A DNA stretch of 64,000 nucleotides from a bacterium (GCA_049472315.1 JBLIRN010000015.1:2598-66597); one strand, 5' to 3'; shown: positions 12,007-64,000, counted from the stretch's first letter. The notes: generated by a model not told the origin, from the sequence alone. Numbers and translations: made by a program.

Positions 12007-12215
12007 AAATGGGGTCAGGTCTTGAATTGACAGTTTTTTCCCGGGTAAAGATTTTTATTTTTTGTTGCGAAAATAGATTTTCATGCTTCGTGGTGCCACA
12101 AAGTGGCATGAGCGTTTGCTCCGAAAATAGAATCATATTTTCATGCTTCTTGGTGCCACAAAGGGATATGAGCGTTTGTTGTTAAAAACTGTCAATTCAA
12201 GACCTGACCCCATTT
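12007..12215. repeat. MITE-like element: 32-bp perfect terminal inverted repeats (AAATGGGGTCAGGTCTTGAATTGACAGTTTTT) flanking a ~145-bp core with two tandem ~50-bp hairpin-containing direct repeats
   Basis: IR-L at 12007..12038 and IR-R at 12184..12215 are perfect reverse complements. The core holds DR1 at about 12068..12118 and DR2 at about 12121..12178. Both copies share GAAAATAG...TTTTCATGCTTC.TGGTGCCACAAAG.G.ATGAGCGTTTG, with an embedded GCCAC-AAA-GTGGC hairpin in DR1. Located between tsaC and the dikinase gene. ORFs 11942..12136(-) and 12143..12364(+) are artefacts of this repeat. Confidence 0.6.
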
Positions 12216-27381: not shown

Positions 27382-29574
27382 CTATATCCGGGGAGGATGG
27401 ATCTGCGTCCGAGGCGGTTCCTTTTTTGTGGGCCTTCCGGGCCGGGCACCCTCGGAGAGGGAGTAGGAATGGAATCCCCCCGAGAGGATGTCAACCCTGC
27501 CGTCCGGATTGGATACCACCGCGTCGTAGTCACCCGCGGGGAGGGTGGCGGGTATCAGGACCTGAAGCTCTCCGGAATTGATGTACCGGGCTGCCAGGCA
27601 GGGGGTAGGAAGCATCCGCATGATGTGGATGCCGCTGTACCCATCCGCCACGAAGATACATCTGCCGTGCACAGCTACGCCCAGTGTCTCGCCCACGGTG
27701 GGGTAGGTGCCCACCTTCTTCGGATAGGCCGGGTCGCTCACGTCGATCACCACAATCCCCAGCCCGGCCACTGCTGCATAGGCGTATCTGCCTGCCGCCG
27801 CAACATCGATGGCGCTTCCCGGCGTGTCAAAGCTTCCTGATAGACGTGGATGGGTGGGGTCACTGATATCGATGATGCGGACTCCCCTTTCCCCGTTTGC
27901 CAGAAAGGCGAATCCACCGCTCACCGCTGTCCCGTATATCCTTCCGTATGCAGGGAGTGCCCCCGCCAGCCGGGGCCGGGACGGGTTACTGACGTTGATC
28001 ACCTTCAGCCCGGTTTCCCCGTCTGCCACGTAGGCAAAGGCACCGTCTATGACCACATCGATGGCGCTTCCCTCGGTGTCGAACCGGCCGATCTCCCGCG
28101 GGGAACGAGGATCGCTCACATCGATGATGTCCAACCCCTCCCGGCCGGCGGCGACATATGCGCATGTCCCGCTCACCGCCACCCTGACGGCGCTCCCCTG
28201 GATAGCGAATGAGCCCGCACGGCGGGGTGCCCGCGGATCACTCACCTCCACGATGAGGAGGCCCTTGTCGCCGTCCGCAACGAAGGCGAACCTGCCGCTC
28301 ACTGCAACCCCGAGGGCATTTCCCGGGGTATCATACGCGCCTGTCTTCTTCGGATGCGGAAGGTCCCCGATATCGACGATGTGCAGGCCCTTGGCGAAAT
28401 CGGCGACATAGGCATAGGTACCGCTTATGGCAATATCATGGGCCCTCCCCGGTGTCTTGAAGTCCACCACCAGACGCGGGTTTGCCGCGTCACTCAGGTC
28501 GATGATACGTAATCCCTGGTTGAGGTCGGCGATATAGGCATACCTGCCGCGCACCGCGACATCGTAAGCCGTGCCCGGTGTCGGATATATCCCCACCTGC
28601 TTCGGTAGTCCGGGATCGCTTACATCCACGATGAGGAGTCCCTTTTTCGAGTCCGCCACATAGGCAAACCTGCCGCCTGCCACCGCTCCAAAGGCCTTCC
28701 CTGGGACCTCCAGCACACCTACACCCCGTGGATGCGCGGGATCGCTTACATCAACGATATGGAGCGCATCGGTTGCGGCGATATATGCGTATCGTCCGTT
28801 CACGGAGATGTCATTCGCCGTGCCGGACGTCGAAAATATACCTATCTCCTGTGGATGCGCGGCATCGCTTATATCGATGATATGCATTCCCTCCTCCCAA
28901 TCCGTGATATAGGCGTATCCACCCTCCACCGCGATACCCGATGCCGTACCTTTCATCGCGAGCGCACCCGTACGCTCGGGTTTGGACGGATCGCTGACAT
29001 CCACGATCACGAGCCCCTCCCCTCTATCCGCCAGATAGATCCGGTTTCCACTCACCGCCAGGTCGTAGGCCTCACCCGGTGTGCCGAAATGCCCAACGGA
29101 CACGGGGCGGCCCGGCTCGCTCACATCGATGATGCGCAGCCCCTTTTCGAAGTCGGCGACATAGGCGTATCTGCCGCTCACTACCACCCCGTAAGCCTTG
29201 CCCGGGGTATCCTGGGCACCCACCAGCCTCGGTGCCGAGGGGTCGCTGATGTCGATGATCTGCAATCCCCTTCCGAAGTCGGCGACATAGGCATATCTGC
29301 CGCTCACTACGACGCTGTAAGCCTTGCCCGGGGTCTTCTCTCCTGCCGTCAGATTTGAACCCACCCGGTACAGATGCACCTCGGTATCGGGGGTAAATCC
29401 CGTACCATGGATGGAAATCCCTGCGGATGAGGCATTTCGGTAGGAATCGGGAACCACGCCGGTGATGCGCAGGGGCTCGAAATACTCGCCGCGGGCACGA
29501 GTACTGATCATTATCGGGAGGAGCAAGACACAAGAAAGACAACAGGTCAAAATTGTGTATAGGAATCTATTCAT
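27382..29574 (-). CDS. LVIVD-repeat beta-propeller protein with IPT/TIG-like domains, secreted
   Basis: ORF 27382..29757. Probable start is MNRFLYT at 29574, with a signal peptide. More than 12 repeats of the pattern G.AYGVAVSGRYAYVAD...GL.IVDVSDP...P. Ig-like IPT segments at both ends. Confidence 0.85.
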   Translation of the reverse strand: MNRFLYTILTCCLSCVLLLPIMISTRARGEYFEPLRITGVVPDSYRNASSAGISIHGTGFTPDTEVHLYRVGSNLTAGEKTPGKAYSVVVSGRYAYVADFGRGLQIIDISDPSAPRLVGAQDTPGKAYGVVVSGRYAYVADFEKGLRIIDVSEPGRPVSVGHFGTPGEAYDLAVSGNRIYLADRGEGLVIVDVSDPSKPERTGALAMKGTASGIAVEGGYAYITDWEEGMHIIDISDAAHPQEIGIFSTSGTANDISVNGRYAYIAATDALHIVDVSDPAHPRGVGVLEVPGKAFGAVAGGRFAYVADSKKGLLIVDVSDPGLPKQVGIYPTPGTAYDVAVRGRYAYIADLNQGLRIIDLSDAANPRLVVDFKTPGRAHDIAISGTYAYVADFAKGLHIVDIGDLPHPKKTGAYDTPGNALGVAVSGRFAFVADGDKGLLIVEVSDPRAPRRAGSFAIQGSAVRVAVSGTCAYVAAGREGLDIIDVSDPRSPREIGRFDTEGSAIDVVIDGAFAYVADGETGLKVINVSNPSRPRLAGALPAYGRIYGTAVSGGFAFLANGERGVRIIDISDPTHPRLSGSFDTPGSAIDVAAAGRYAYAAVAGLGIVVIDVSDPAYPKKVGTYPTVGETLGVAVHGRCIFVADGYSGIHIMRMLPTPCLAARYINSGELQVLIPATLPAGDYDAVVSNPDGRVDILSGGFHSYSLSEGARPGRPTKKEPPRTQIHPPRI

Positions 29575-29722
29575 GACGTAGCAGCGATGATTATGGTATC
29601 CGATAACCTCCCTGACTGCCTTTGGCTTCCCCTGGGTCTCCTGTGTGCTGAGTTTTTCCAGAGTCTTGAAGTCAGTTAAAGGATTTTTCTTAGAGTCCAT
29701 GACGGCACTCCTCCTGATGATG

Positions 29723-30337
29723 CTATTTACCCTCAGTATGATCGCCGTCCTCGGCAATCCCCTCCAGAAAGATGTTCCAGAGTTTGCTGAATTTTTTCAT
29801 GGGCGAGACCGTGTAGTTGGTAAGGGCGTACTGCACGATTGCCGTATGAACCATGCCGAAAAAGAGCAGGCTCGCCGAGTCCAGGTTGATATCCCCTCTA
29901 ACCAGACGGCGCCGCTTCCCCTCCTCCAGTATCCCGCGTATCTTGCTGGTGTAGGTGTAGATCACCTCCAGTATCTTGCGGCGCAGTTTGTCGTCATTGC
30001 TGTGGATGGATTCCGCGGTAATGGCGAACAGGATGCCTTTTTGCTCTTCCGTAAAGGACATATGGGCCTTCATGATCTCCTGCAGTCTCAGCAGCGGGTT
30101 CTTGTGGTTTCGGATGGGGTACTCGATGACCCGCATCAGGTTATCCTCGAAGTCATCGGCAAGCGCCATCAAAATGGAGTGCTTGTCCATGAAGTGACGG
30201 TATATCCCGGCCTCCGAGATATTGATCTGCCTGGAGATATTCTTTATGGTAAGATTCTGTATCCCTTCCTGCGCAATCAATTCGATCGATGCATTGATGA
30301 TCTCGTTCCTTCGTTCCTCCGTGGTCTTTCGTTCCAT
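29723..30337 (-). CDS. TetR/AcrR family transcriptional regulator (paralog 2)
   Basis: HTH LTIKNISRQINISEAGIYRHFMDKH. Paralogous to 24760..25359. Leads the LVIVD propeller gene on the minus strand. Confidence 0.9.
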   Translation of the reverse strand: MERKTTEERRNEIINASIELIAQEGIQNLTIKNISRQINISEAGIYRHFMDKHSILMALADDFEDNLMRVIEYPIRNHKNPLLRLQEIMKAHMSFTEEQKGILFAITAESIHSNDDKLRRKILEVIYTYTSKIRGILEEGKRRRLVRGDINLDSASLLFFGMVHTAIVQYALTNYTVSPMKKFSKLWNIFLEGIAEDGDHTEGK

Positions 30338-30366
30338 ATATCATCACCTTGAAATCTCAACGATTG

Positions 30367-37053: not shown

Positions 37054-37071
37054 AAAGGGCAACCATCTGTT

Positions 37072-37242
37072 TCACCATTCTCTTTCAGGAACACCAAGAC
37101 GCTTCAGCCACCAGGTCATGCCCATGGCGGCAGCGGTGGTGACCATGATAACGGCCGCATGCAATGCGAATCCCAGAGGGGTGGCATTCCGGATAATCGG
37201 CCCTGCTGGAGCAGCATATACATGGGTATCACAGGAGGATAT
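37072..37242 (-). pseudogene. remnant of a DedA/TVP38 C-terminal end: degenerate copy of the 3-prime end of the PLD-DedA fusion gene
   Basis: Minus-strand frame reads ...AAPAGPIIRNATPLGFALHAAVIMVTTAAAMGMTWWLKRLGVPEREW*. The C-terminus of gene 38262..40394 reads ...ADRAGAIIRNPAPLEFVLLAAAIILTATAALGVVWWLKRLGVSGSER*. About 70% nucleotide identity over ~115 nt. No start codon; an in-frame stop lies upstream. Confidence 0.55.
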
Positions 37243-37455: not shown

Positions 37456-37779
37456 TTAATAAAGCCCCAATTGAACCTTGATCGCCTCCCCGATCTTGAG
37501 CATGTCATCTTCAGAGAGAATCCCCGCAGGTTTAAAGAGCCGTAATTTACTCACCGTGGCCAGTTGATCGGCCATGGCCTTGCTTTCCCTGCCGTCAAAC
37601 ATGACAATCGCTTCACTTGGATATTGACGGCCTGTCTTACTCGTCAGGGGAACAACCTGAACGCGATTGAGGAATCTATTGGAGGCATCATTGCTGACGA
37701 TTACGGCAGGACGCCTTTTTTTGATCTCACCGCCCACGGAGGGATCAAAATTGACCCACCAGACCTCACCCCGCTTCAT
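37456..37779 (-). CDS. mazF: type II toxin-antitoxin system PemK/MazF family toxin (mRNA interferase)
   Basis: ORF 37456..37911. Start is the ATG at 37779 (MKRGEVWWVNFDPSVGGEIKKRRPAVIVSND...VVPLTSK). Classic MazF/PemK pattern. Confidence 0.85.
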   Translation of the reverse strand: MKRGEVWWVNFDPSVGGEIKKRRPAVIVSNDASNRFLNRVQVVPLTSKTGRQYPSEAIVMFDGRESKAMADQLATVSKLRLFKPAGILSEDDMLKIGEAIKVQLGLY

Positions 37780-37996
37780 GGGTGATGTCCCTGAAGGTGG
37801 CCTCTGCCCACTCCAAGGCCTCCTCTTCGCGCTTTTTGTCCTTTGACATTTGGGAATAGGCGGATTCCAGATTGGGGCGAACGACATGGGGACGCACGAG
37901 ATTTTCAACAAATTTGCTGATTCGACGAGGACCTATAACCTTATGAAGACCCTCGTAAACTTCCTCATCCACGGTTATGGTCAGCTTTTTCTGCAT
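37766..37996 (-). CDS. type II toxin-antitoxin system antitoxin (RHH/MazE-like), cognate of the downstream MazF
   Basis: 76-aa ORF. Overlaps the toxin start by 14 nt. N-terminal beta-strand KKLTITVDEEVYEGL is typical of ribbon-helix-helix or swapped-hairpin antitoxins. AGGAGG RBS. Confidence 0.7.
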   Translation of the reverse strand: MQKKLTITVDEEVYEGLHKVIGPRRISKFVENLVRPHVVRPNLESAYSQMSKDKKREEEALEWAEATFRDITHEAG

Positions 37997-38037: not shown

Positions 38038-38261
38038 ATGCTGCATGATGTCAAATATGAATAACTTAAGAAAAAATACTCCATAACCTACCCATTGGAC
38101 CGACTTTTGGCGCATTCACGGCGAGGATGATACGGAAGGCCCGGCGTGCCGCTTGGTTTCCCACCACCGGTCGAGGTGAAACATACGGCTTGCATGAGAG
38201 AGGTTCAGCGATGTATTCATGGTGCCTGAGGGTGTTTGGAATGATTGCCGCTTTTACGATT

Positions 38262-40394
38262 TTACCGTTCACTTCCGGAGACACCGAGACGTTTCAGCCA
38301 CCACACCACGCCGAGGGCGGCAGTGGCGGTGAGTATGATCGCTGCGGCCAGCAATACGAATTCCAGGGGTGCGGGGTTGCGGATAATGGCCCCCGCCCGG
38401 TCTGCAACGATGGCAACAATCAGAAGACCCGGCAGCACACCGAGGATGGTGCCCGGCAGGAAATGGCGGAAACGGGTGTGTGATGCCCCGGCCACAAGAT
38501 TCACCAGTGTAAAGGACGCCACAGGCACCACCCGTACCGCCAGGACCGAACGCACCCCGTTTCGAGCGATGAGCCGGCTGACTATATTGAGCCGGGGACC
38601 GGCGATCCGCCGGATGATCCCCCGGCCGAGGAGGCGGCCAAGCCAGAAGGTGAACACGGCGCCTGCCAGTATCCCCGCATAGGCGTAAGCGAAACCGGTA
38701 AATGGGCCAAAAATCACCACGGTGGCCACGATGAGCAGGGTGACCGGCAGGGCGATAAGTGAGAAAACGGCGTATACGAGCATGACCCACAGGGACGTGA
38801 GCTTGGAGCTCCTGATTATTGCAGCAAGTTGTTTCAGGGCCTCCACGTCGATCCATTCCCCGAAAGGCGACCACCGCCAGGCGGCGACGAGCCCTGCAAC
38901 GGCTGCAAGAATGAGGGTGACCACAACGATGCGCTGCCTGGCGGAACGGCGGTGCTCGGAGGGAAGCATCTCCCGGGCCAGACGATCGGGATCGATGGGC
39001 ACCTCCGGATCGATAACCACCGCCTCGGGCACCATGGCGTCAACGGCAAGCGGGATGTCCGCAGGAATGGGCCCCATGCTCCGTTCGCCGCCCTGAAGCT
39101 GTTGAATTGCCCTGATCAGCGATCCGGTCCCCGAATGCACCTCTGCAACCCGTTCCGGGGTCGCCCCCAGGTGCTCGGCAAGAAGCCGGCAGCGCAGGCT
39201 GGCAATGGCTGCGGCATGGGTTTCGGTGAGGGCCTCCATGGCCAGATCGCACTCCGTGTCATATCCCATGGACCGGTTGTTGAGATTGGCCGAGCCTATG
39301 CGCACGAACCGGTCATCGACGATCATCAGCTTGCTGTGAAGATTGATCTGCGCTGCCTCCAGTGCCGCATGACGCGGATAGCACACCAGAAGTCTTTCCC
39401 GTTTATCCACCTCCCTCAACCTTTTGACGAGCCGTGCCCGCAACACCTCCATGGTCACCTCCTCCAGCCAGCCTCCTCCGGACAGGCGGGAGACAATGAC
39501 TACCTCCGGTCCTTTCGCCTCCTGCAGGCGCGTTGACAGTGCCTCTGCAATCTCCGCTGAGGTGAGGTATTGATTTTCGATATAGATGAACCGGCGGGCC
39601 GCGGCAATGGCGTCAAGGTAGAGCTGTTTCACCTCCCGCACCTCCGGGTGTTGTTTGTACCGGGGCTCGGTGCGGGCAATGGCCACCTCTGCATCGCGTA
39701 TATCCGGTGAAACCCCGGCGGGCCATGGATCAGGGCCTTCCGGGGCATGTGATGAGGGAGGCCGGTGGCCGGTGGCACGGCGCCACCGCTCCCCGGCCAG
39801 TTCACCCAGGGCGGCTGCGGCCTTCCCGTCGACCAGCATCTGTATGTCGTGAAAGGGCGGATAGGGGTTCCCTTGCGGATTGATACGGCGTGGGTCACCG
39901 GGGAGATGCTCGGGGGTGTCCCATCGTCCCCTGGTGAGATCCAGTCCCCCCACAAAGGCCACGGCATCGTCGATCACCACGATCTTCTGATGGTGGGACC
40001 CACCCACAGGATGGGCGGCGTCCAGGCGGAAGCGGAGTCTGGGATGGGAGGTCCATGCAGGCCGGAAAACGGGAAACAACTCGCGGTTGAATGCGTAGAC
40101 CATGGCAAAGTCCCAGTCCAGCAGATACACCTGAAGGTCCCTGCGCTGCGAGACCAGGGCGTCGAGGAATTCACCAAGCCGAACCGGCAGGTCGTCCTGA
40201 GGCGTGTCCCGCACCATTCGGACCTGGCTGTGCATATCCCAGCCGACGATGAATAGGGAACGCTGTGCACGGGCCGCTGCCTCCCTGAAGGCCGCGAAGT
40301 AGGATGCGCCGTCTATCAGAAAGGCCACCCTGTCCGACCTGAAGATACGCCAGCAGTTGCGGCCCGGACGAAGGATGCGGTCACTCATCTTCAT
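38262..40394 (-). CDS. phospholipase D-like (two HKD motifs) fused to a C-terminal DedA/TVP38 membrane domain
   Basis: HKD-1 HHQKIVVIDDAVAFVGGLDL. HKD-2 LHSKLMIVDDRFVRIGSANLNNRS. C-terminal ~230 aa with multiple TM helices and DedA-like pattern (FGPFTGFAYAYAGILAGAVFTFWLGRLLG...). Long antisense ORFs 38269..38874(-) and 38829..39536(+) are rejected. Confidence 0.9.
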   Translation of the reverse strand: MKMSDRILRPGRNCWRIFRSDRVAFLIDGASYFAAFREAAARAQRSLFIVGWDMHSQVRMVRDTPQDDLPVRLGEFLDALVSQRRDLQVYLLDWDFAMVYAFNRELFPVFRPAWTSHPRLRFRLDAAHPVGGSHHQKIVVIDDAVAFVGGLDLTRGRWDTPEHLPGDPRRINPQGNPYPPFHDIQMLVDGKAAAALGELAGERWRRATGHRPPSSHAPEGPDPWPAGVSPDIRDAEVAIARTEPRYKQHPEVREVKQLYLDAIAAARRFIYIENQYLTSAEIAEALSTRLQEAKGPEVVIVSRLSGGGWLEEVTMEVLRARLVKRLREVDKRERLLVCYPRHAALEAAQINLHSKLMIVDDRFVRIGSANLNNRSMGYDTECDLAMEALTETHAAAIASLRCRLLAEHLGATPERVAEVHSGTGSLIRAIQQLQGGERSMGPIPADIPLAVDAMVPEAVVIDPEVPIDPDRLAREMLPSEHRRSARQRIVVVTLILAAVAGLVAAWRWSPFGEWIDVEALKQLAAIIRSSKLTSLWVMLVYAVFSLIALPVTLLIVATVVIFGPFTGFAYAYAGILAGAVFTFWLGRLLGRGIIRRIAGPRLNIVSRLIARNGVRSVLAVRVVPVASFTLVNLVAGASHTRFRHFLPGTILGVLPGLLIVAIVADRAGAIIRNPAPLEFVLLAAAIILTATAALGVVWWLKRLGVSGSER

Positions 40395-55673: not shown

Positions 55674-56807
55674 TCAACGGCCATGATATATCTGGTGCGC
55701 CGAATAGCGACAAATCGGATACCCCTTCAGCCATGCCGTATTTTCGACAAAGTCCGGGAGGTACACGAAGATGAGCCGTTTAGCGCACGCGGGATTTTCC
55801 TGCAAGAATCCAGGGAGATCCCGGTCTTCACCGATGAGCACAAAGCAGAGGCTCGATTTTTTTGGGACATGGGCGAGGATGTCCTCCAGATGCGTGATCA
55901 CGGTCGCTGCCTGATGCTCCTCCATTCTGGCCATGATCTCCAGCACGATATCGGAGCCGTTAAAGGGGGATACATGGGAGATCTCTCCCGTTCCCAGGTT
56001 CGCCAGGGAGATCTGGTTCCCCTTGTCCAGGGCAGCCAGGGCCAGGGAGCCTGCAGCGCGAGCCGCCCAATCAAGCGCAGGGCTGTCCTCGGGCGTCGAG
56101 TTCCGGCGGCTGTCAACGAGCACGCAGACCCGTCCGGACAACTCCTCGTCGAACTCCTTGACCATCATCCCTTGTCCCTTGGAGGAACTGGGCCAGTGGA
56201 TGAGCTTCACCGGATCCCGCTCCTGCATCGGACGAACCCCATGGAACTGATCCCCCATGCTCGTCCGGTATTTCCCTTTCATCTGCCCCCCCAGCATGGG
56301 GATAAAACCACCGGCATGCGGCGGGTCACAGTGGTACACCGAGGGATAGACCAGGATCTCCCCGGCCCGGTCAAACGGTCTTTGATAGCGGATCAATCCG
56401 AACGGGAAACCACAGGAAACGGTCAACCCTGTATAGGGGTACACCCCCCGTTTAACCAGGGTGAGTTCAGGTGACCGGCGGATGCACTCTCCGGGAGGAA
56501 TCGCGCCGACCCTGAACAGCGGTCCCCATGTGCTTTTGATCTCGATGAATCCGCGCATGCGCGAGGTTGGATTACGGAAGGTCCAGGTTCCCCGGACCGG
56601 TTGACCCTCGGTGGCGGTCAGCGTATTGGCCGGTGTGATGCGGAGGGACGAGAGGTGCCTGATTGCGGCTATGAGATTGTATATATAGCAGCCGATGATG
56701 ATACCCAGCACCAGAAAGAGCAGGCCGCTCAATTCCTGCATGGAGGCGATATACATGAGGAGCGCAAGGCAGGCCAGACCGTATCCGAATTTTGTGGGGA
56801 AAATCAC
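55674..56807 (-). CDS. DUF58 domain protein (vWA-like, MoxR-associated)
   Basis: Two N-terminal TM helices. DUF58 pattern G...FRPG.....G..F.GVR.Y..GD..R.IHW..SAR. Four-nt overlap with moxR. Confidence 0.8.
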   Translation of the reverse strand: MIFPTKFGYGLACLALLMYIASMQELSGLLFLVLGIIIGCYIYNLIAAIRHLSSLRITPANTLTATEGQPVRGTWTFRNPTSRMRGFIEIKSTWGPLFRVGAIPPGECIRRSPELTLVKRGVYPYTGLTVSCGFPFGLIRYQRPFDRAGEILVYPSVYHCDPPHAGGFIPMLGGQMKGKYRTSMGDQFHGVRPMQERDPVKLIHWPSSSKGQGMMVKEFDEELSGRVCVLVDSRRNSTPEDSPALDWAARAAGSLALAALDKGNQISLANLGTGEISHVSPFNGSDIVLEIMARMEEHQAATVITHLEDILAHVPKKSSLCFVLIGEDRDLPGFLQENPACAKRLIFVYLPDFVENTAWLKGYPICRYSAHQIYHGR

Positions 56808-57775
56808 ACAGGGACCTCTATCTCGGCGAGGATACTCTCAATGACGTGACGCATATCGAGGTGTGTCTGGGGGGTACCTTTCCTGACGATCAGGCGATGG
56901 GCCAGGACAAGGGGGGCGGATGCCTTGATATCATCGGGCAGCACATAATCACGGCGATTGATCAGGGCGGTTGCCTGGCTGAAACGCACCAGATCCAGGC
57001 CTGCCCGCGGACTGGCGCCATGCTCTATGCCAGGGGTGGATCGTGTCTTCTGGACGATGGCCACGGCATAGTCGATCAGCTCCTCGGTGATCCGGACCTG
57101 TCTCACTGCATGCTGCAATTCCAGGAGCTCTTGACAATCCAGGACAGGTTCCAGTGTGTCTATGGGAGAGGCGCCGATCTGTTCCTGGATCATGGTCCGT
57201 TCCTCCAGCGGTCCCAGGTACCCGAGCCGCAGCCGGATGATAAAGCGATCCAGTTGGGCGAAGGGCAGGGGATAGGTGCCCTCCAGTTCGATGGGATTCT
57301 GGGTGGCGATCACAAAGAATGGCTTGGGAACCGGATAGAACGTGCCGTCTATGGAGACCTGGTTTTCCTCCATGGCCTCCAGAAGGCTCGATTGCGTTCG
57401 GGGGGTGGCCCTGTTGATCTCATCCCCCAGCAGTACATTGGTGAACAGGGGACCGGGCCGAAACCGGAATTCGCCCGACTGCTGGTGATAGATGTTGACA
57501 CCCGTGATGTCTGAGGGCAACAGATCGGCGGTGAACTGTATCCGTTTGAACTGCGCATTCACCGACTTGGCAATGGCCTTGGCGAGCATGGTCTTCCCGA
57601 TTCCGGGGACATCCTCGATGAGCATGTGCCTATCGGCGAGGAGTGCCGATATCGCCCAGATCACCTCCCGGTTCTTCCCGATGATGACCTTCTCTATATT
57701 GGATACGAGCCTGGAGGCCCGATCCACAATGGTCATCTCCGCACAGGCCTTTTCTATATCATCGATCTTTTTCAT
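56804..57775 (-). CDS. MoxR family AAA+ ATPase
   Basis: Walker A EDVPGIGKT. Walker B LLGDEINRA. Typical MoxR length and order. Heads the moxR-DUF58-tgpA operon. Confidence 0.9.
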   Translation of the reverse strand: MKKIDDIEKACAEMTIVDRASRLVSNIEKVIIGKNREVIWAISALLADRHMLIEDVPGIGKTMLAKAIAKSVNAQFKRIQFTADLLPSDITGVNIYHQQSGEFRFRPGPLFTNVLLGDEINRATPRTQSSLLEAMEENQVSIDGTFYPVPKPFFVIATQNPIELEGTYPLPFAQLDRFIIRLRLGYLGPLEERTMIQEQIGASPIDTLEPVLDCQELLELQHAVRQVRITEELIDYAVAIVQKTRSTPGIEHGASPRAGLDLVRFSQATALINRRDYVLPDDIKASAPLVLAHRLIVRKGTPQTHLDMRHVIESILAEIEVPV

Positions 57776-58297
57776 ATCCTACCCATTTAATCGGTCATTC
57801 CGGGATTATGGTCAGAATTTTTCCTTCACCACCCGGATCATCATCTTTCCCTGTCTGGATTATATCCCGGCTTTATAGCTGCTCCTTGCATGCGGGCATG
57901 GTGAAAAATAGGGCTGTTCTGTGCGGCATGCCTGCCCGAAGGCGCAGCACCAGCGGCACTACAAGCAGTATATCATCAAGCCCCTGGTAAGCCAAGAAAA
58001 GACGGTATATAAGAAAGGTGAAATCTCAATGCACCATGTGAGGGGTGATCCATATCGTAGTACCCCATAAGGAACATAATACATTGTTTTTATCCCCAAC
58101 AAGGTATTGGCGTCGCATACTGATGTGCCGGATTTGACTTATGTCAATGCATCGTACGTGGAAGTATTTATAATTACGTGTAGAATGCAATGATTGGAAA
58201 GACGAATTTAAACACTATAGAGATCAGCGATTCAGGATGCATGGCAATACAACAGGGATGCCGGGAAGATCGACCATACCGATGGGAGGAAAAAATC

Positions 58298-58636
58298 ATG
58301 AGGATCATAGAACTGAAGGATGCGGCATTGAGCCCGAATCCGCATCAAGTCGATGCAAGAAGGCTTTACGACACGGATAACGCCCAGGTTGTCCACATCA
58401 TGTTGAAGCCCGGGGAGTCTTTAAAGCGGCACATCACCCCTGTGGATGTGTTCTTTTATGTGCTTGAAGGACAAGGGATCGTGGAGATAGGGGATGAAAG
58501 GGAATCGGTCGGCCCTGACACCCTCATTGAAAGCCCGGCGCGTATACCGCATTGCCTGCATAATGAGGGTGCGGGGATATTCCGGGTGCTCGTGGTCAAG
58601 GTGCCGAGGCCCCAGGAATCGACAAAAATCCTATAG
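58298..58636 (+). CDS. cupin domain protein
   Basis: ORF 58190..58636. Start is the ATG at 58298, after a GGGAGG RBS. Cupin motifs G.S..H.H.....FYVLEG.G and P...H...N.G. Confidence 0.7.
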   Translation: MRIIELKDAALSPNPHQVDARRLYDTDNAQVVHIMLKPGESLKRHITPVDVFFYVLEGQGIVEIGDERESVGPDTLIESPARIPHCLHNEGAGIFRVLVVKVPRPQESTKIL

Positions 58637-59014
58637 GATTGACACAAGGCCCGGCAGACGTCGCACACAAACCCGGGCTTCAGTATCCGATCAATCGCAT
58701 CTATATCAGTATCATACCTTCCCTGATGACGTGGTTGATGATATCCTTGATACTGTTCCTTCGAGTCTCTTGAATCTGAATGCGCTCCATCAATGAAGGT
58801 ATCGAATAATCGACAACAGGGTCAGGTTTGCAGGTGAACGGCATCTGTTGTCCGAAGGATCGCTTCAGTGGTCAACCCCACGCCGGCCCGGGTTAGTCAT
58901 CCTGTCATGGGGTTTCATGGGCCTGTGCGATCCGTATCTTTGAGAAAGATCAAGGCCCGCAGGCAGAGTGTGTGCAGAGGATGATAGGTGAATCGGATGA
59001 ATGGGGGTACGGTT

Positions 59015-59962
59015 ATGAAGAATGAAGCTCAGCATGTGATCGAAATCGATCAACTCACCAAGAGGTTCGGTTCGATCTATGCGGTCGATGCAATTTCATT
59101 CCACGTGAACCATGGTGAATTATTCGGTTTTCTCGGACCGAATGGGGCGGGAAAGACCACCACCATCAGGATGCTCACCGGCCTGCTCTCCCCGGACTCC
59201 GGAGATGTCCGTATCGATGGGATTGATATCACCAAACACCCCATTCAGGGGAAACTGAAGATGGGGGTCATCCCTGAGATGGGAAATATCTATATCGACT
59301 TGACTGCACGACAGAACATTACCATGGCGGGCAGATTTTACGGGATTCCTAGAAGGCAGTTGGATGAAAAAACGGATAGCCTTTTACAGCGGTTTAAACT
59401 GGACGACAGGAAGGACAATCCCGTGAAGACCTTTTCAAAAGGGATGCAACAAAGGGTGAATATCGCCAGTGCCCTGGTTCATGATCCCGAGATCCTGTTT
59501 CTGGATGAACCGACATCAGGGTTGGATGTCCAGAGTCAGCGACTGATCAAGAATATTATCAAGGAGATGAATCAGAAAGGGACCACCATTTTCTTGACCA
59601 CGCACAATATCGAGGAGGCGAATATACTCTGCGAGAGGTTAGCGATCATAGACCGGGGAAGGATCGCCACCATCGACACCCCCGAGAGATTGAGGAGGAC
59701 CTTTCAATCCACGCAGTCGGTGGAAATCGCCTTTGATCGACCGGTTGACGAGCATTGGATCGAGAAAGAGGGATTGACCGGCACGATAGAGAAAATGGGA
59801 GACAAGAGAAAAATCTATACGGATGATCCCGACACGCTGGTGAAGTATCTGGTCGGGCTTGCCCGGGATCGGGATCTGAAGATCATCTCTCTGGAGATAT
59901 GCAGGGCCAGCTTGGAGGATGTATTCCTGAAATTGACCGGGGGTGACAGCCATGAACATTAA
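59015..59962 (+). CDS. ABC transporter ATP-binding protein (ABC-2 exporter type)
   Basis: ORF 58988..59962. Likely start is MKNEAQH at 59015. Walker A GPNGAGKTT. Signature FSKGMQQR. Walker B ILFLDEPTSGLD. H-loop TTH. Confidence 0.9.
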   Translation: MKNEAQHVIEIDQLTKRFGSIYAVDAISFHVNHGELFGFLGPNGAGKTTTIRMLTGLLSPDSGDVRIDGIDITKHPIQGKLKMGVIPEMGNIYIDLTARQNITMAGRFYGIPRRQLDEKTDSLLQRFKLDDRKDNPVKTFSKGMQQRVNIASALVHDPEILFLDEPTSGLDVQSQRLIKNIIKEMNQKGTTIFLTTHNIEEANILCERLAIIDRGRIATIDTPERLRRTFQSTQSVEIAFDRPVDEHWIEKEGLTGTIEKMGDKRKIYTDDPDTLVKYLVGLARDRDLKIISLEICRASLEDVFLKLTGGDSHEH

Positions 59963-60707
59963 GGATATCAACAGGCAGTTTTTCCGCGGCTTATTCATGA
60001 CCACGGAAAAGAATATACGGATCTATTACACCAAGCCCCCGGTGATCATATTCGGTCTCCTGTTTCCCCTGTTCATATTTATGGCCTTCTATCTGGGAAG
60101 GGCGATCGATTTTCATGTCTTTTTTCCCGGACTTTTCGCCATGTCCGTTTTCTTTATCGCCTCGTCGGTGGGACCGCTCATTACCCCCTGGGAAAAACAG
60201 GCCCGGACCTATGAACGGCTGTTATCCTTCCCGGTGGATATTAATGTGATCATCCTGGGGGATACGGTGGCAGGGATGATTTACGGCATTCTGATAAATC
60301 TGGCCGTGCTCGTTCTGGGGTTGGTATTCCTGCAGTATCATCTGCGCATCCTGCTTCTGGTGGCCAGTTTATTTCTGGGGGCATTCTGCTTTTCCTCCAT
60401 CGGTGTCTTATTGGCGTCTCCTTCGGTTCCCAATCCATCACATATCATGATGCTTTCCAGCCTGGTGCGTTTCCCCCTGATTTTCATCAGCGGCATATTC
60501 ATTCCCTTGGGGGATCTGCACGGCATGGGCAAGGCACTGGCCTATTGCTCACCCCTGACCTATCTGGTGGATATATTCAATTTCAGCTTTCGGGGCGAAT
60601 CCCATATCTCCCTGTGGGTTGATTTCATCATGTTATGTGTATTCAGTGCGATATTCCTGTTCTTTTCCAATCGATTTCATACGAGGAATTTGATGAGGGG
60701 ATTGTAA
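59943..60707 (+). CDS. ABC-2 type transporter permease
   Basis: Six TM helices. Overlaps the ATPase stop by 20 nt. Confidence 0.8.
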   Translation: MTAMNIKDINRQFFRGLFMTTEKNIRIYYTKPPVIIFGLLFPLFIFMAFYLGRAIDFHVFFPGLFAMSVFFIASSVGPLITPWEKQARTYERLLSFPVDINVIILGDTVAGMIYGILINLAVLVLGLVFLQYHLRILLLVASLFLGAFCFSSIGVLLASPSVPNPSHIMMLSSLVRFPLIFISGIFIPLGDLHGMGKALAYCSPLTYLVDIFNFSFRGESHISLWVDFIMLCVFSAIFLFFSNRFHTRNLMRGL

Positions 60708-60886
60708 ATGGACAGAAGGAATGCGTTCATCCATTTCCTCCGGCCGGGATCGGGATATTATTGAGACGTGAATGGCCTTCATGGATCGTTCGGCTGTCGG
60801 CCGGGGAGCGTGATGTTTGATGCTCAGGCATGCAGGCCTCTATATGGGGGGCGAAATATTGTAGGCTGATGAGGAGATATGCAAGA

Positions 60887-61051
60887 ATGGAAAATGAAAG
60901 TGATCTCCATGAAGAGATAGTAATGCTCGAAAAGGAGATAGCGGAATTAAAGGCCAGGATGCCTGCTCATTCAATACCTGTAGCGATGCTTCAGCAACTC
61001 GAAGACCTGGAAGAGGCGCTCGATTCAAAAAAGAGGGCATGTGAGCCATGA
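60887..61051 (+). CDS. small hypothetical coiled-coil protein (54 aa)
   Basis: ORF 60830..61051. Probable start is the ATG at 60887, after a GAGGAG RBS. Sequence MENESDLHEEIVMLEKEIAELKARM.... Stop overlaps the next ORF start (ATGA). Confidence 0.35.
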   Translation: MENESDLHEEIVMLEKEIAELKARMPAHSIPVAMLQQLEDLEEALDSKKRACEP

Positions 61052-61230
61052 TCTGTGTCAATCATCCCGAGAGAGAAGCCCCTCTTATCTGCCAGAAGCA
61101 TGGGATAGCATACTGCCATGAGTGTTGTATATGCCCTCAGCCCAAGACCTTTTGTGAATTCAGAGCGAATTGCCCTATATGGGTGCACTGCGTGAAGGAA
61201 TCCGGGGATTTGATCGGACAAGAGGGATAG
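61048..61230 (+). CDS. small Cys-rich protein (9 Cys in 60 aa), B-box-like zinc-finger pattern
   Basis: CVNH-x8-C-x7-CHECCIC resembles the C-x2-H-x7/8-C-x7-C-x2-C B-box arrangement. Translationally coupled to the upstream small ORF. Confidence 0.4.
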   Translation: MICVNHPEREAPLICQKHGIAYCHECCICPQPKTFCEFRANCPIWVHCVKESGDLIGQEG

Positions 61231-61300
61231 GCATTGGCAGGATATGGGAGAATTATATCAAAAAGTCTCCGTTAATCAGTCTATCAAATAAAGGAGATTG

Positions 61301-61411
61301 AGAAACGGCGATTGATGTCAATGACACCACCGTTAAGGAGGAGGTATTGGCCTCTGAAACACCCGTTTGCGTGGATTTTTGGGCACCATGGTGTATGCCA
61401 TGTAGAATGTA
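61301..61411 (+). pseudogene. thioredoxin N-terminal remnant (truncated after the active site)
   Basis: Frame reads [36 protein letters not shown] then stop (TAG at 61409..61411). A TGA lies immediately upstream and there is no start codon. The downstream frames do not continue a thioredoxin. Confidence 0.55.
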
Positions 61412-61476
61412 GCCCGGCACGGCCATTGAAAACCGGAATGCATTGTGATGACGGGCGTTCTTTGGAGGCGGAACAC

Positions 61477-61821
61477 ATGTTCGGCAGGTCCTTGAGAAGG
61501 AAACGAGAGGAAAGGACAATTGAGAGGATGATACGGATCTACTGCTCCGGGAGGCACAATACCGATACCGGCCTCTGCCCTGAATGCGAAGGGCTTTTGC
61601 GGTATGCCCTGGAACGTATTGATCGTTGTCCCCTGAAGGGGCGGAAGACAACCTGCGCACGGTGTACAATTCACTGCTACGCACCTGCTATGAGGCAAAG
61701 GATACGGGAGGTCATGCGGTATGCGGGTCCCCGCATGGCATACACACACCCCCTTTTGACCCTGCTTCATCTTTTTGATGGGTTGCGGTTACGAGGTTCA
61801 TCAAATATCAAAGAAGAATAA
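61477..61821 (+). CDS. nitrous-oxide-stimulated-promoter (YgbA-like) family Cys-rich protein
   Basis: ORF 61312..61821. Likely start is the ATG at 61477, after a GGAGG RBS. Pattern MIRIYCSGRHNT..GLCPECEGLLRYALERIDRCPLKGRKTTCARCTIHCY. Confidence 0.55.
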   Translation: MFGRSLRRKREERTIERMIRIYCSGRHNTDTGLCPECEGLLRYALERIDRCPLKGRKTTCARCTIHCYAPAMRQRIREVMRYAGPRMAYTHPLLTLLHLFDGLRLRGSSNIKEE

Positions 61822-61834
61822 GGAGAGCCATCAC

Positions 61835-62224
61835 ATGCTGCTGAGAATAATCCTTGTGTCATTTTCCTGTCTCCTCCTGGGGGCACATTTTTTAAGAGGC
61901 GGCAATTTTGTACTGACGCTCCTGTGCCTTTCGCTCCCGTTTCTGCTTGTAATAAAGAAACGCTGGAGTCTGGCTGTCGTACAGATATCCCTGTTTATAG
62001 GGGCATGGATCTGGGTGCGCTCGATCGTCATTATACTGCATACGCGGATCACCAACGGCCTCCCCTGGGCAAGGGTGGTAACGATCCTTGGGGCGGTGGC
62101 CATGCTTACCCTTTGTTCGGGCCTGCTATTGTTTGCACCGGCGGTGAAGAAACGCTATCCTCGATGCAATCAAGGGATAGAGAATTGCGAGCATGATCCG
62201 GAGGGTGGGGAACAGGTTCGATAG
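61835..62224 (+). CDS. hypothetical membrane protein
   Basis: ORF 61775..62224. Start is the ATG at 61835, after an AAGGAG RBS. Four predicted TM helices. Confidence 0.55.
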   Translation: MLLRIILVSFSCLLLGAHFLRGGNFVLTLLCLSLPFLLVIKKRWSLAVVQISLFIGAWIWVRSIVIILHTRITNGLPWARVVTILGAVAMLTLCSGLLLFAPAVKKRYPRCNQGIENCEHDPEGGEQVR

Positions 62225-62283
62225 GGATATTCAGGGTGCTTGTGGTCAAGGTGTCGAGGCCGCAGGAGTCAACTGATGCCTGA
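62224..62283 (+). repeat. orphan copy of the cupin gene 3-prime end (encodes GIFRVLVVKVSRPQESTDA*), direct repeat of 58574..58625
   Basis: About 85% nucleotide identity to the last ~50 nt of the cupin CDS. Reading frame preserved. Begins at the stop codon of the preceding membrane-protein gene. Confidence 0.55.
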
Positions 62284-62458
62284 GGAGGGATGAACGGCAC
62301 GGGTGTATCCATGCTTATCCGCGCACGACAAAAGGGGTACGAAACGAAAGTGACATTGCCTCTCCACGTGATTCGGTCTATAATTGATATAGACCTGATT
62401 CCTTTGACCCCGGAGGGTCAGAATCATTAGGTGTTCTTCGGGCTGCGGGCAAAAGGCC

Positions 62459-64000
62459 ATGAACACGATGACGATAGTGTATGAGAAGTTTTGGACGTCG
62501 AAGGGCATCGTGGCATGCCTTATCGTTCTCATGGTGCTTGCCGGAGTCTCCTCATTTCCCTGTGCCCAGACCATTTGGCCTGGGCCACATTGGAGTGAAC
62601 TGCACGATCCACCACTCGTCTACAAGGTTCTTGAATCCGGCGATATCCTTATCGATGACTTTGAATCCGGCAGCCTTAAGGATAATGGCTGGGGGGATTA
62701 CGTTTATGGCAATGGGTTGGGGATTCCGGTATACCCCCCCGAATATCCGGTAGAAATACTGTGGGATTCATCGAAAAAGAGCAATGTCCTTTCGATAGAG
62801 TTTTATGAATCGATATTTCTTTTGGGAACCCCGGGACCTTCAATGTCCAAGCCGATACCTTGCATAGATGTTTCCACACATTCGAATCTATCCTTTGACC
62901 TGCGCTTGCCTTATAGTGTGGACTGGGATGAAACCGATTATTTTAGGTTCGCGGCTTACGGGAAAAATGCAGCAGGTGACAAGCAGATTATCGTTAAATT
63001 CTTCGCCTTGCCGCAACCGGATACCGCTTCTTCAGTGCCCGTTAAATCCTTTATTGACCCTGTCACTAAAGACAAATGGAATTGCACGGTAACGCACTAT
63101 GAATCCGATTCTATAACCATCTCAGTAAGCCCTGCCGGTAGAATAGATTACTTCTCCGCCTGGCACAAGGTACATCTGAATCTTGCAAAGGCGGTCACAA
63201 AGGCTGTCGATGCGTACGAGGAAATTCCCTGTCCCTCTGACTGGTATTTGGACAGGATCGAATCATTTCGCATATTTTGCTATTGTTTTCGTTTGGATGC
63301 CCTCATGTTCACCTGTGCCCCGCCTCCGCCCCCGCCCCGGCATCCCGTTCTCTTTGAGATGGGGGATCTCTCTGCGCAGATGTTCGAGCCTTATAGGTAC
63401 CTGTTCATCGCGGACTGTACGGGTGCGGGCATCGTGGCCCACGATGTTTTTGGTCACGTGAGCACGTGTGATCGCATTGCCGACCTGATGCTCAACCCTG
63501 ACAACTTCATCGTCGCCGAGGATCCCAACGATCCCAACGACCCTGTCGTGAAGTACTGGACCGATCTGGGCGCCGATCCCGACCTGTTCGGGAGGGATAA
63601 CGATCCCGTCATCAGCGATATTTTGGGCAGGGACTTCAAGGTGGACCTGACCCTTCCCATCTTTGCGGATCCCGATCTACGTCTTACCCAGTCCGGACCA
63701 GGACCCATGGCGAAGCACATCATCAACCTGGGCACCCTGGAATGGAACGCCACGCTCGATGGATATGGCGAATACGGCATCCAGGCATTCCTGCTCCAGC
63801 CGCTTTGGCTCTATCCCTATGACGGCATGCCGACCTATATACCGGTTTACTACAACGCCTTGCATGTCAAGAAGGAAACAGGCAAACCATACTTTGGGCC
63901 CGACATGGTATACGTGCTGGAATCCGCCTTGTGGAATGCGGGGATTACGGTATGGCCCAATATCGCGGCCCTTGAGTACACGCCAATGTACTTTGAGGAC
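62459..64000 (+). CDS. hypothetical secreted protein, partial (continues past window end); possible N-terminal carbohydrate-binding-like domain and poly-Pro linker
   Basis: Not in the ORF track because it is open-ended. Verified codon by codon: 514 sense codons from the ATG at 62459 to 64000 with no stop. Signal peptide IVACLIVLMVLAGVSSFP. DDFESGSLKDNGW motif. PPPPPPRHP linker. Local GC is clearly lower than the window average. Confidence 0.7.
   Translation, partial: MNTMTIVYEKFWTSKGIVACLIVLMVLAGVSSFPCAQTIWPGPHWSELHDPPLVYKVLESGDILIDDFESGSLKDNGWGDYVYGNGLGIPVYPPEYPVEILWDSSKKSNVLSIEFYESIFLLGTPGPSMSKPIPCIDVSTHSNLSFDLRLPYSVDWDETDYFRFAAYGKNAAGDKQIIVKFFALPQPDTASSVPVKSFIDPVTKDKWNCTVTHYESDSITISVSPAGRIDYFSAWHKVHLNLAKAVTKAVDAYEEIPCPSDWYLDRIESFRIFCYCFRLDALMFTCAPPPPPPRHPVLFEMGDLSAQMFEPYRYLFIADCTGAGIVAHDVFGHVSTCDRIADLMLNPDNFIVAEDPNDPNDPVVKYWTDLGADPDLFGRDNDPVISDILGRDFKVDLTLPIFADPDLRLTQSGPGPMAKHIINLGTLEWNATLDGYGEYGIQAFLLQPLWLYPYDGMPTYIPVYYNALHVKKETGKPYFGPDMVYVLESALWNAGITVWPNIAALEYTPMYFED

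Follow-up and report, generated by a model that had tools for sequence, protein, structure and literature searches.

Direct repeats of a gene 3' end, set around cargo genes oriented as the gene itself, are the classic look of islands lodged in the ends of tRNA or protein genes. Non-homologous DNA may also be added without element-encoded enzymes by homology-anchored illegitimate recombination (HFIR), in which one end of a fragment is anchored by homology, and a microhomology of a few bases serves to join the other. Experiments have demonstrated HFIR in Acinetobacter, Streptococcus pneumoniae and Pseudomonas stutzeri (references 41, 42 and 47 of PMC5361080). It has been proposed as the cause of C-terminal displacement at type VI secretion system (T6SS) effector, Rhs and CdiA loci, where a new 3' end is inserted together with linked downstream genes, the old end persists downstream as orphan 3' fragments, and the gene remains intact (Kirchberger 2017, PMC5361080; Jackson 2009 is also cited there). 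A comparable footprint marks a stretch of 64,000 nucleotides from a bacterium (GCA_049472315.1 JBLIRN010000015.1:2598-66597), hereafter called the window. A 3.6-kb block of genes resides behind the stop codon of a cupin gene, and a 52-nt relic of the 3' end of the same gene is found on the far side of the block. The arrangement is, on balance, probably the outcome of 3'-end displacement by HFIR followed by a deletion. The coordinates of all features are collected in Table 1.

The repeat is direct, on the same strand and ungapped. Residues 58574-58623 and 62224-62273 are identical at 44 of 50 positions (88%), one further base brings the match to 51 nt with 7 differences, and the longest exact run measures 12 nt. 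The 30-nt degenerate core of the repeat has 2 sites only in the window, and found 0 matches in 100 dinucleotide-preserving shuffles; the local alignment score of the copies is 38, compared with 6.5 +/- 1.2 for shuffled sequence, and thus lies about 25 standard deviations above it. Copy 1 corresponds to codons 93-109 of the intact Cupin_2 gene (58298-58636). Copy 2 reads GIFRVLVVKVSRPQESTDA and stop in its own frame, and begins on the final base of the TAG stop codon (62222-62224) of the membrane-protein gene which closes the block, the two frames being different. Similarity ends 11 nt short of the cupin stop codon, where copy 2 reads D-A-stop, and the DNA found 3' of copy 1 is not similar to that found 3' of copy 2 (p=0.38). 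The true end of the family is well conserved: the C-terminus ...PRPxExT[KR]xL, with last residues [KR]-[ILVFM]-L, is present in 120 of the 120 best cupin homologs out of 3534. Because the match is limited to codons 93-109 and the DNA beyond is unrelated, copy 2 is an isolated 52-nt relic cut on both sides, and not a second gene end. The original prediction, made from the sequence alone, had noted that the end of the cupin gene recurs at 62224, from the stop of the last gene in the block, and had asked whether the similarity would survive a control for composition; all this holds. It had also viewed the copy as the gene end, and the block as bracketed by two such ends. Here the prediction is right in part: codons 93-109 are repeated, and the end is partly duplicated, but the last 11 nt are absent from the right copy, and the left copy lies within an intact gene.

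The site without the block was found in L107, a 40-kb metagenome contig of the Joint Genome Institute (JGI), retrieved through the best homolog of the secreted-protein gene located downstream of the block. L107 features, in this order, an HcpR-type operator, an orthologous cupin gene, a spacer of ~720 nt and an ortholog of the window's secreted-protein gene, and lacks the block. In blastn alignments, L107 8775-9266 corresponds to window 58132-58626 (84%; operator, promoter region and cupin), L107 9804-11526 to window 62274-63999 (81%). Homology stops at window 58626, and resumes at 62274. The L107 cupin gene (8938-9276) is single, complete, and 90% identical at the nucleotide level to the window gene; the ortholog of the downstream gene starts at about 9992-10001. 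L107 position 9804 aligns at the right edge of the relic, where the window reads GTCAAC/TGATGCCTGAGGAGGGATGAACGG and L107 TTTCCGA/TGATGCCAAGGCAGGGATGAAAGG. Missing from the window is L107 9264-9803, which includes the last three cupin codons, the stop codon and 527 nt of spacer. The 527-nt spacer has no counterpart anywhere in the window, non-coding parts of the block included. As judged from these alignments, the order shown by L107 is the ancestral one. Because L107 carries the uninterrupted site, the window lineage is the one which gained residues 58637-62223 behind the cupin stop codon, kept the 52-nt relic, and lost ~540 nt, mostly of old spacer. The possibility that L107 is itself a deletion product formed between the repeats was ruled out, since a proper cupin end (KVL and stop) and the 527-nt spacer are both present. 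The insertion of cargo at the cupin 3' end with duplication of that end, as originally proposed, is thus borne out by a locus in which the same two genes flank no block.

The left flank of L107 deserves a separate mention. L107 8437-8581 is a 145-nt fragment of a MoxR ATPase gene, matching window 57122-57265; the gene is complete in the window (56804-57775), and a branched-chain amino-acid ABC transporter operon is located beside the fragment in L107. Because the MoxR fragment adjoins this operon, the left flank is regarded as rearranged in the L107 lineage.

The right part of the block resides on different downstream DNA in other loci. L102 matches window 61285-62226 at 88% nucleotide identity, thioredoxin fragment included, and the match ends exactly at the start of the relic, at a GGG microhomology. 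L100 and L101 match window 61419-62217 at 78%. All three cease to resemble the window at the membrane-protein stop codon; beyond this gene, L102 and L100 share a downstream sequence of their own, which is not cupin-like. The window junction reads TAGGG/ATATTC, L102 reads TAGGGGGGC, and the cupin gene GCGGGGATATTC, which leaves a 3-nt microhomology: GGG is common to the end of the membrane-protein gene in L102 and to cupin codons 92/93 (GCGGGGATA). The C-terminal tail of the membrane protein was not created by the junction, because it is shared by the homologs P0122 and P0123. The DNA just upstream of the relic, which encodes this tail, matches cupin codons 84-92 marginally (p=0.005 in a local test, 0.05 when set against the entire gene). 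This was taken as chance, as the tail is native to the membrane-protein family, and the tails encoded in L102 and L100 show none. The block is not an ancient one with identical boundaries, a concern raised in the original prediction, since it is missing from L107, while its right part is found in another context in L102 and L100.

The left junction is covered by four independent assemblies (L001-L004), the right junction by all ten contigs listed (L090-L099; 99.4-99.9% identity) of the 23 which carry the membrane-protein gene. The junctions are no assembly artefact, because both recur in independent assemblies from several sequencing runs. Within the species, no presence/absence polymorphism was found: the block, as well as the toxin-antitoxin (TA) pair described below, is present in all contigs looked at.

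Table 1. Features of the cupin and PLD-VTT loci in the window (positions counted from its first nucleotide; ORF, open reading frame)
Feature	Coordinates	Strand	Evidence or remark
Relic of PLD-VTT(DedA) gene allele	37070..37206	-	last 45 codons and stop, in frame, stop codons aligned
Cargo: PemK/MazF-type toxin (37456-37779) and antitoxin (37766-37996)	37456..37996	-	PF02452 on identical gene in L108-L110
Intact PLD-VTT gene, 3' end duplicated	38262..40394	-	ORF and repeat alignment
Palindrome TTGACTTATGTCAA, HcpR1-type (Crp/Fnr family) operator	58134..58147	.	upstream of cupin operon
Intact cupin gene, 112 aa	58298..58636	+	Pfam Cupin_2, E=7.6e-15
Repeat copy 1	58574..58624	+	codons 93-109 of intact cupin
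Inserted 3.6-kb block	58637..62223	+	missing from uninterrupted site in L107
Non-coding left end of block	58637..59014	.	no relative found
ABC transporter ATPase, DrrA-like	59015..59962	+	Pfam ABC_tran 5.2e-33; TIGR01188 drrA 1.9e-98
ABC-2 type permease	59952..60707	+	Pfam ABC2_membrane 5.9e-20
54-aa ORF, no Pfam/NCBIfam match	60887..61051	+	stop overlaps next start (ATGA)
60-aa Cys-rich ORF (9 Cys), no Pfam/NCBIfam match	61048..61230	+	ORF call
Thioredoxin N-terminal pseudogene fragment	61302..61412	+	Pfam Thioredoxin 3.3e-08; tblastn with E. coli TrxA
YgbA-like (nitrous oxide-stimulated promoter family) protein	61477..61821	+	Pfam YgbA_NO 6.7e-40; NF007714 1.4e-37
129-aa membrane protein	61835..62224	+	homologs P0121-P0130; recurrent partner of YgbA and cupin
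Relic of cupin 3' end	62224..62275	+	codons 93-109, P103S, cut on both sides
Ancestral spacer segment	62274..62458	+	equals L107 9804-9993, directly upstream of downstream gene
Secreted protein gene, cut by window end	62459..64000	+	ortholog P0131 (L107), 74% aa; ancestral downstream neighbour of cupin

According to the reading which we favour, the incoming fragment would have carried a related cupin allele followed by the ABC-2 exporter, the two small ORFs, the thioredoxin remnant, YgbA and the membrane protein. Its cupin allele would have paired with the resident cupin gene, providing the homologous anchor, and its far end, just past the membrane-protein stop, would have been joined illegitimately into codon 93 of the resident gene across the GGG microhomology. 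The incoming allele would thereby have become the working cupin gene, and the last codons of the resident one would have ended up 3.6 kb further downstream, as a non-functional relic. Subsequently a deletion of ~540 nt would have removed the last three codons and the stop codon of the relic, along with most of the old spacer. No mobile-element enzyme would be involved. The ancestral site, both breakpoints, the microhomology and the lack of element features are observed; that the cupin gene served as anchor, that the fragment was foreign or came from a sibling, and which of the two events came first are what we infer.

The differences between the two copies bear on the allelic nature of the relic. 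The copies differ at 7 codons; the change is synonymous in 6, and in the seventh the relic has serine for the invariant proline 103. As a random change in these codons is synonymous 27.5% of the time, 6 out of 7 is unexpected with both copies drifting freely (p=0.002), and also with one copy drifting and the other accepting silent changes only (p=0.03). The relic shows 7 differences over 51 nt from each of the intact copy, the L107 ortholog and the L103 cupin; the intact copy differs from L107 at 5 positions. Because most codon differences are synonymous, and the relic is equidistant from the copy in its own genome and from the orthologs, two once-functional alleles are weakly favoured over a fresh self-duplication.

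Several points weigh against displacement by HFIR. No donor contig was found in which the cupin gene is directly followed by this ABC-2 exporter, so that the homologous anchor is deduced and not seen. The relic lacks the last 11 nt of the gene, and the second event, a deletion of ~540 nt, must be assumed. With L107 and L103 as outgroups, 51 nt offer too few sites to tell the resident 3' end from the incoming one, and the argument drawn from synonymous changes is built on 7 differences. The YgbA and membrane-protein genes of the block are 78% identical to those in L100, a value similar to that of the flanks to L107 (81-84%), which equally fits DNA copied or moved from another place in this genome; L100 and L107, although from a single metagenome, may belong to different organisms.

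The cupin locus shares with HFIR the single anchor, which would here be the cupin gene, the joining of the other end at a few bases, and the gain of non-homologous DNA without an element-encoded enzyme. It differs in that the process is here deduced from a natural footprint in an uncultured lineage, and in that an extra deletion is needed to account for the trimmed relic. In common with the displaced ends of T6SS effector, Rhs and CdiA genes, the host gene is intact, a new 3' end would have arrived together with downstream genes, and the old end would persist beyond them. In contrast to those loci, the host gene is a small cupin of the housekeeping type, or a PLD-VTT gene at the second locus, and not a polymorphic toxin; no new specificity is gained, the coding sequence of the new end being that of the old one, and the payload corresponds to the downstream genes; and a single relic is found instead of an array.

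A whole-window, sensitive self-comparison identified just two repeats of the relic type, at the cupin and at the PLD-VTT locus. In the latter, residues 37070-37206 repeat 38260-38396 with 101 of 137 positions identical (26% divergence) and a longest exact run of 11 nt, and a PemK toxin-antitoxin pair is located between the intact PLD-VTT gene and the relic. The copies feature 10 synonymous and 19 mostly conservative replacement differences. The relic ends 17 nt from the end of a convergent neighbouring gene, viewed as the old downstream neighbour, and retains its stop codon, as the displacement model predicts before trimming. On the reading favoured above, the TA pair would have reached its place behind the PLD-VTT gene by the process that brought the block to the cupin gene; the architecture common to the two loci had already been pointed out in the original prediction, and is found here with refined boundaries.

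Among the alternatives, template switching within one genome is unlikely, yet it ranks ahead of the others. By a copy-paste process similar to microhomology-mediated break-induced replication (MMBIR), synthesis would have moved from the cupin gene to an ABC...YgbA-membrane protein locus and back at GGG, codon 93, re-copied 52 nt, and then jumped into the spacer. The relic has sharp edges on both sides, the sequence from which the 52-nt patch was copied adjoins the junction, and a microhomology marks the left relic junction, all features which this process would explain; insertion and loss of ~540 nt of spacer would take place in one event, and the equal divergence of block from L100 and of flanks from L107 is expected of native DNA. 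On the same hypothesis, however, the copies would have been identical at birth and have diverged later. A ratio of 6 synonymous changes in 7 is marginally unlikely if the relic drifts freely (p=0.03), the relic resembles the copy in its own genome no more than it does orthologs of other lineages, and the copies at the TA locus, 26% diverged and rich in conservative replacements, resemble two alleles rather than a decayed self-copy.

Descent from two resident cupin paralogs, which flanked the block until deletions took the 5' part and the tail of the second one, is improbable. The prevalence of synonymous differences is what one would expect between functional genes, and cupin-family pairs exist in some genomes, with weak second hits in L049, L053, L064 and L074. 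These hits are distant cupins (24-29% identity), which fall outside the 112-aa cupin family. Moreover L107, the closest relative with both flanks, has one cupin, and a single ancestral gene stands where the window has the intact gene and the relic; in L102 and L100 no cupin sequence follows the membrane-protein gene. Recombination between cupin paralogs, offered as an alternative in the original prediction, is disfavoured on these grounds.

That the block is a decayed site-specific integrative element, which has lost its integrase and brought a replacement cupin end, the repeats being attL and attR, is rather improbable too. As in tyrosine-recombinase islands, co-oriented cargo follows an intact gene whose end is repeated in direct orientation on the far side, and at least one gene in the block, marked by the thioredoxin fragment, is decayed. 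Nevertheless, all ORFs in the block are accounted for, with no recombinase or transposase among them, and no integrase, excisionase or remnant thereof was found in any frame of the block. No tRNA gene was found. The exact core does not exceed 12 nt (11 nt at the TA locus), and the right repeat lacks the true end of the gene, unlike an attR. The right part of the cargo is ordinary chromosomal DNA in relatives. Site reuse was not observed either: a second copy of the cupin 3' end, searched with the last 60 nt of each gene within 8 kb on either side, was found in 0 of 88 other cupin loci. Because no 3' relic is present in these 88 loci, a recurrent att site was rejected. Differences from transposons and insertion sequences are as marked: there are no terminal inverted repeats at 58637/62223 and no transposase, and the repeat measures 50 nt and is inexact.

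An unrecognised enzyme-driven machinery, which would place cassettes behind stop codons and regenerate the gene end in both examples from the window, is very doubtful. Such a mechanism had been suggested in the original prediction, and is not needed, as the architecture corresponds to the known footprint of HFIR and 3'-end displacement (PMC5361080). Finally, chance similarity or a chimeric assembly, for which only the shortness of the repeat speaks, is to be practically discounted in view of the empty shuffles, of a score so far above them, and of junctions recurring in independent assemblies.

The gene content of the block was assigned with Pfam and NCBIfam, and agrees with the earlier description, except that of the two coupled small proteins, both of which had been called Cys-rich, only the second is. 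The 54-aa (helical) and 60-aa ORFs are translationally coupled through ATGA, and located behind the ABC-2 exporter; the 54-aa ORF is annotated as a gene in L090-L096. The thioredoxin fragment, recognized as such from the start and found by both Pfam and tblastn, spans 36 codons (residues ~6-38), with WCMPC present, no start codon and a premature stop. L102 has a similarly truncated thioredoxin piece before YgbA (28-129), decayed differently, with ATG present and WRMPC, the first active-site cysteine being lost. Because the same piece precedes YgbA in L102 (88% nucleotide identity), the fragment is old, and was attached to YgbA before the insertion event. YgbA is annotated by gene callers as a longer ORF. 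The membrane protein has few homologs, and the two closest sit behind YgbA genes. GC at third codon positions (GC3) varies within 0.44-0.64 across the block; the cupin gene has 0.64 and the downstream gene 0.61, compared with a background of 0.69 +/- 0.05. GC and GC3 are mildly lower in the block, with no step at its edges; the composition profile, proposed earlier as a check, does not decide the question.

The cupin gene scores 54.8 bits with Cupin_2 (cut-off 27.2). Homologs (3534 matches) are nearly all 112 aa long, reside in bacteria and archaea, and are 60-83% identical. The perfect HcpR1-type palindrome TTGACnnnnGTCAA has a single match in the window, at 58134, and corresponds to the HcpR consensus as published in Rodionov 2005 (PMC1274295). 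It was found once per locus, at an equivalent promoter position, in six related loci (L005 5188, L009 9859, L010 1542, L103 32, L104 58, L107 8777). The operator is always located upstream of an operon containing the 112-aa cupin, and a divergent Crp/Fnr regulator gene is often adjacent. These data suggest that the HcpR nitrosative-stress regulon includes this widespread cupin family. Similarities to the regulon of anaerobes described in PMC1274295 include the operator TTGACnnnnGTCAA preceding the window operon, and the presence in related loci of a divergent Crp/Fnr regulator, Hcp, ferredoxin-like proteins and YgbA as neighbours. Differences are that hcp and the regulator gene are not adjacent in the window, and that, in the passages of the paper considered here, no mention of this cupin or of the 129-aa membrane protein as a regulon member was noticed.

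Genes of the block recur next to the cupin gene in other lineages. L005-L008 feature a Crp/Fnr regulator, an HD protein, a Fer4 protein, cupin, Hcp, YgbA and the membrane protein, the last and Hcp being truncated; L009, L010 and L103 a Crp/Fnr regulator, cupin and Hcp. In L111 the cupin gene is directly followed by the membrane protein, then by HD and Fer4 proteins. The membrane protein follows YgbA in L100, L102 and L005-L008. Genes for YgbA and the membrane protein being habitual neighbours of cupin elsewhere, the block is not random cargo. The view of it as a heterogeneous mosaic could not be maintained for this reason, and because the thioredoxin fragment was already joined to YgbA. All the new genes, the exporter included, point the same way behind an HcpR-type promoter. 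The insertion thus probably restores a nitrosative-stress cluster of the type cupin...YgbA-membrane protein, similar to those of other lineages, and a donor with the order cupin...YgbA-membrane protein is plausible. Relics of Hcp, Crp, HD and Fer4 genes were sought in the non-coding stretches of the block, and none was found.

In the TANS21 relatives L005-L008, the hcp gene that follows cupin encodes only 190 aa, compared with 542 aa for the full-length gene of L010, and the membrane-protein gene that follows YgbA is shortened to 53 aa (e.g. L005 7271-7843 and 8370-8531). In several lineages, the interval from cupin to YgbA is undergoing decay or remodelling.

The secreted protein encoded downstream of the block is a member of a large family of ~780-aa proteins for which Pfam has no entry. 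The locus-tag prefix ACMUIS_ of the metagenome-assembled genome (MAG) from which the window derives appears to be shared by several paralogs, others are found in sister MAGs, and some relatives feature thrombospondin type 3 or MopE-like metal-binding repeats. A scan of JGI metagenomes for relatives of this gene yielded only a 42% homolog in L106, in an uninformative context.

Other repeats reside elsewhere in the window. The intergenic region 12007-12215 features a perfect 32-nt inverted repeat (12007-12038 / 12184-12215), and inside it a 51-nt direct repeat present as two tandem units, 12077-12127 and 12137-12187, which are 84% identical; the whole has the look of a small structured element, or of one similar to a miniature inverted-repeat transposable element (MITE). 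Residues 24746-25341 and 29756-30351 make up a 596-nt inverted pair with 67% identity, corresponding to paralogous genes on opposite strands, and flank a large repeat-rich ORF (27382-29757) with 126-nt periodic repeats.

The cupin locus is a clean example of an event already known from other bacterial loci, and calls for no new mechanism. It provides a natural case of gene gain by an operon in uncultured anaerobes without mobile-element machinery, with junctions mapped to the base, and with the ancestral site and part of the source arrangement recovered. Short orphan gene ends can serve as markers by which events of this kind are detected and dated in MAGs. The 112-aa cupin, the 129-aa membrane protein and YgbA are linked to HcpR-type operators, which suggests a nitrosative-stress context for unstudied proteins. 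Two footprints in 64 kb suggest that the process may be frequent in this lineage.

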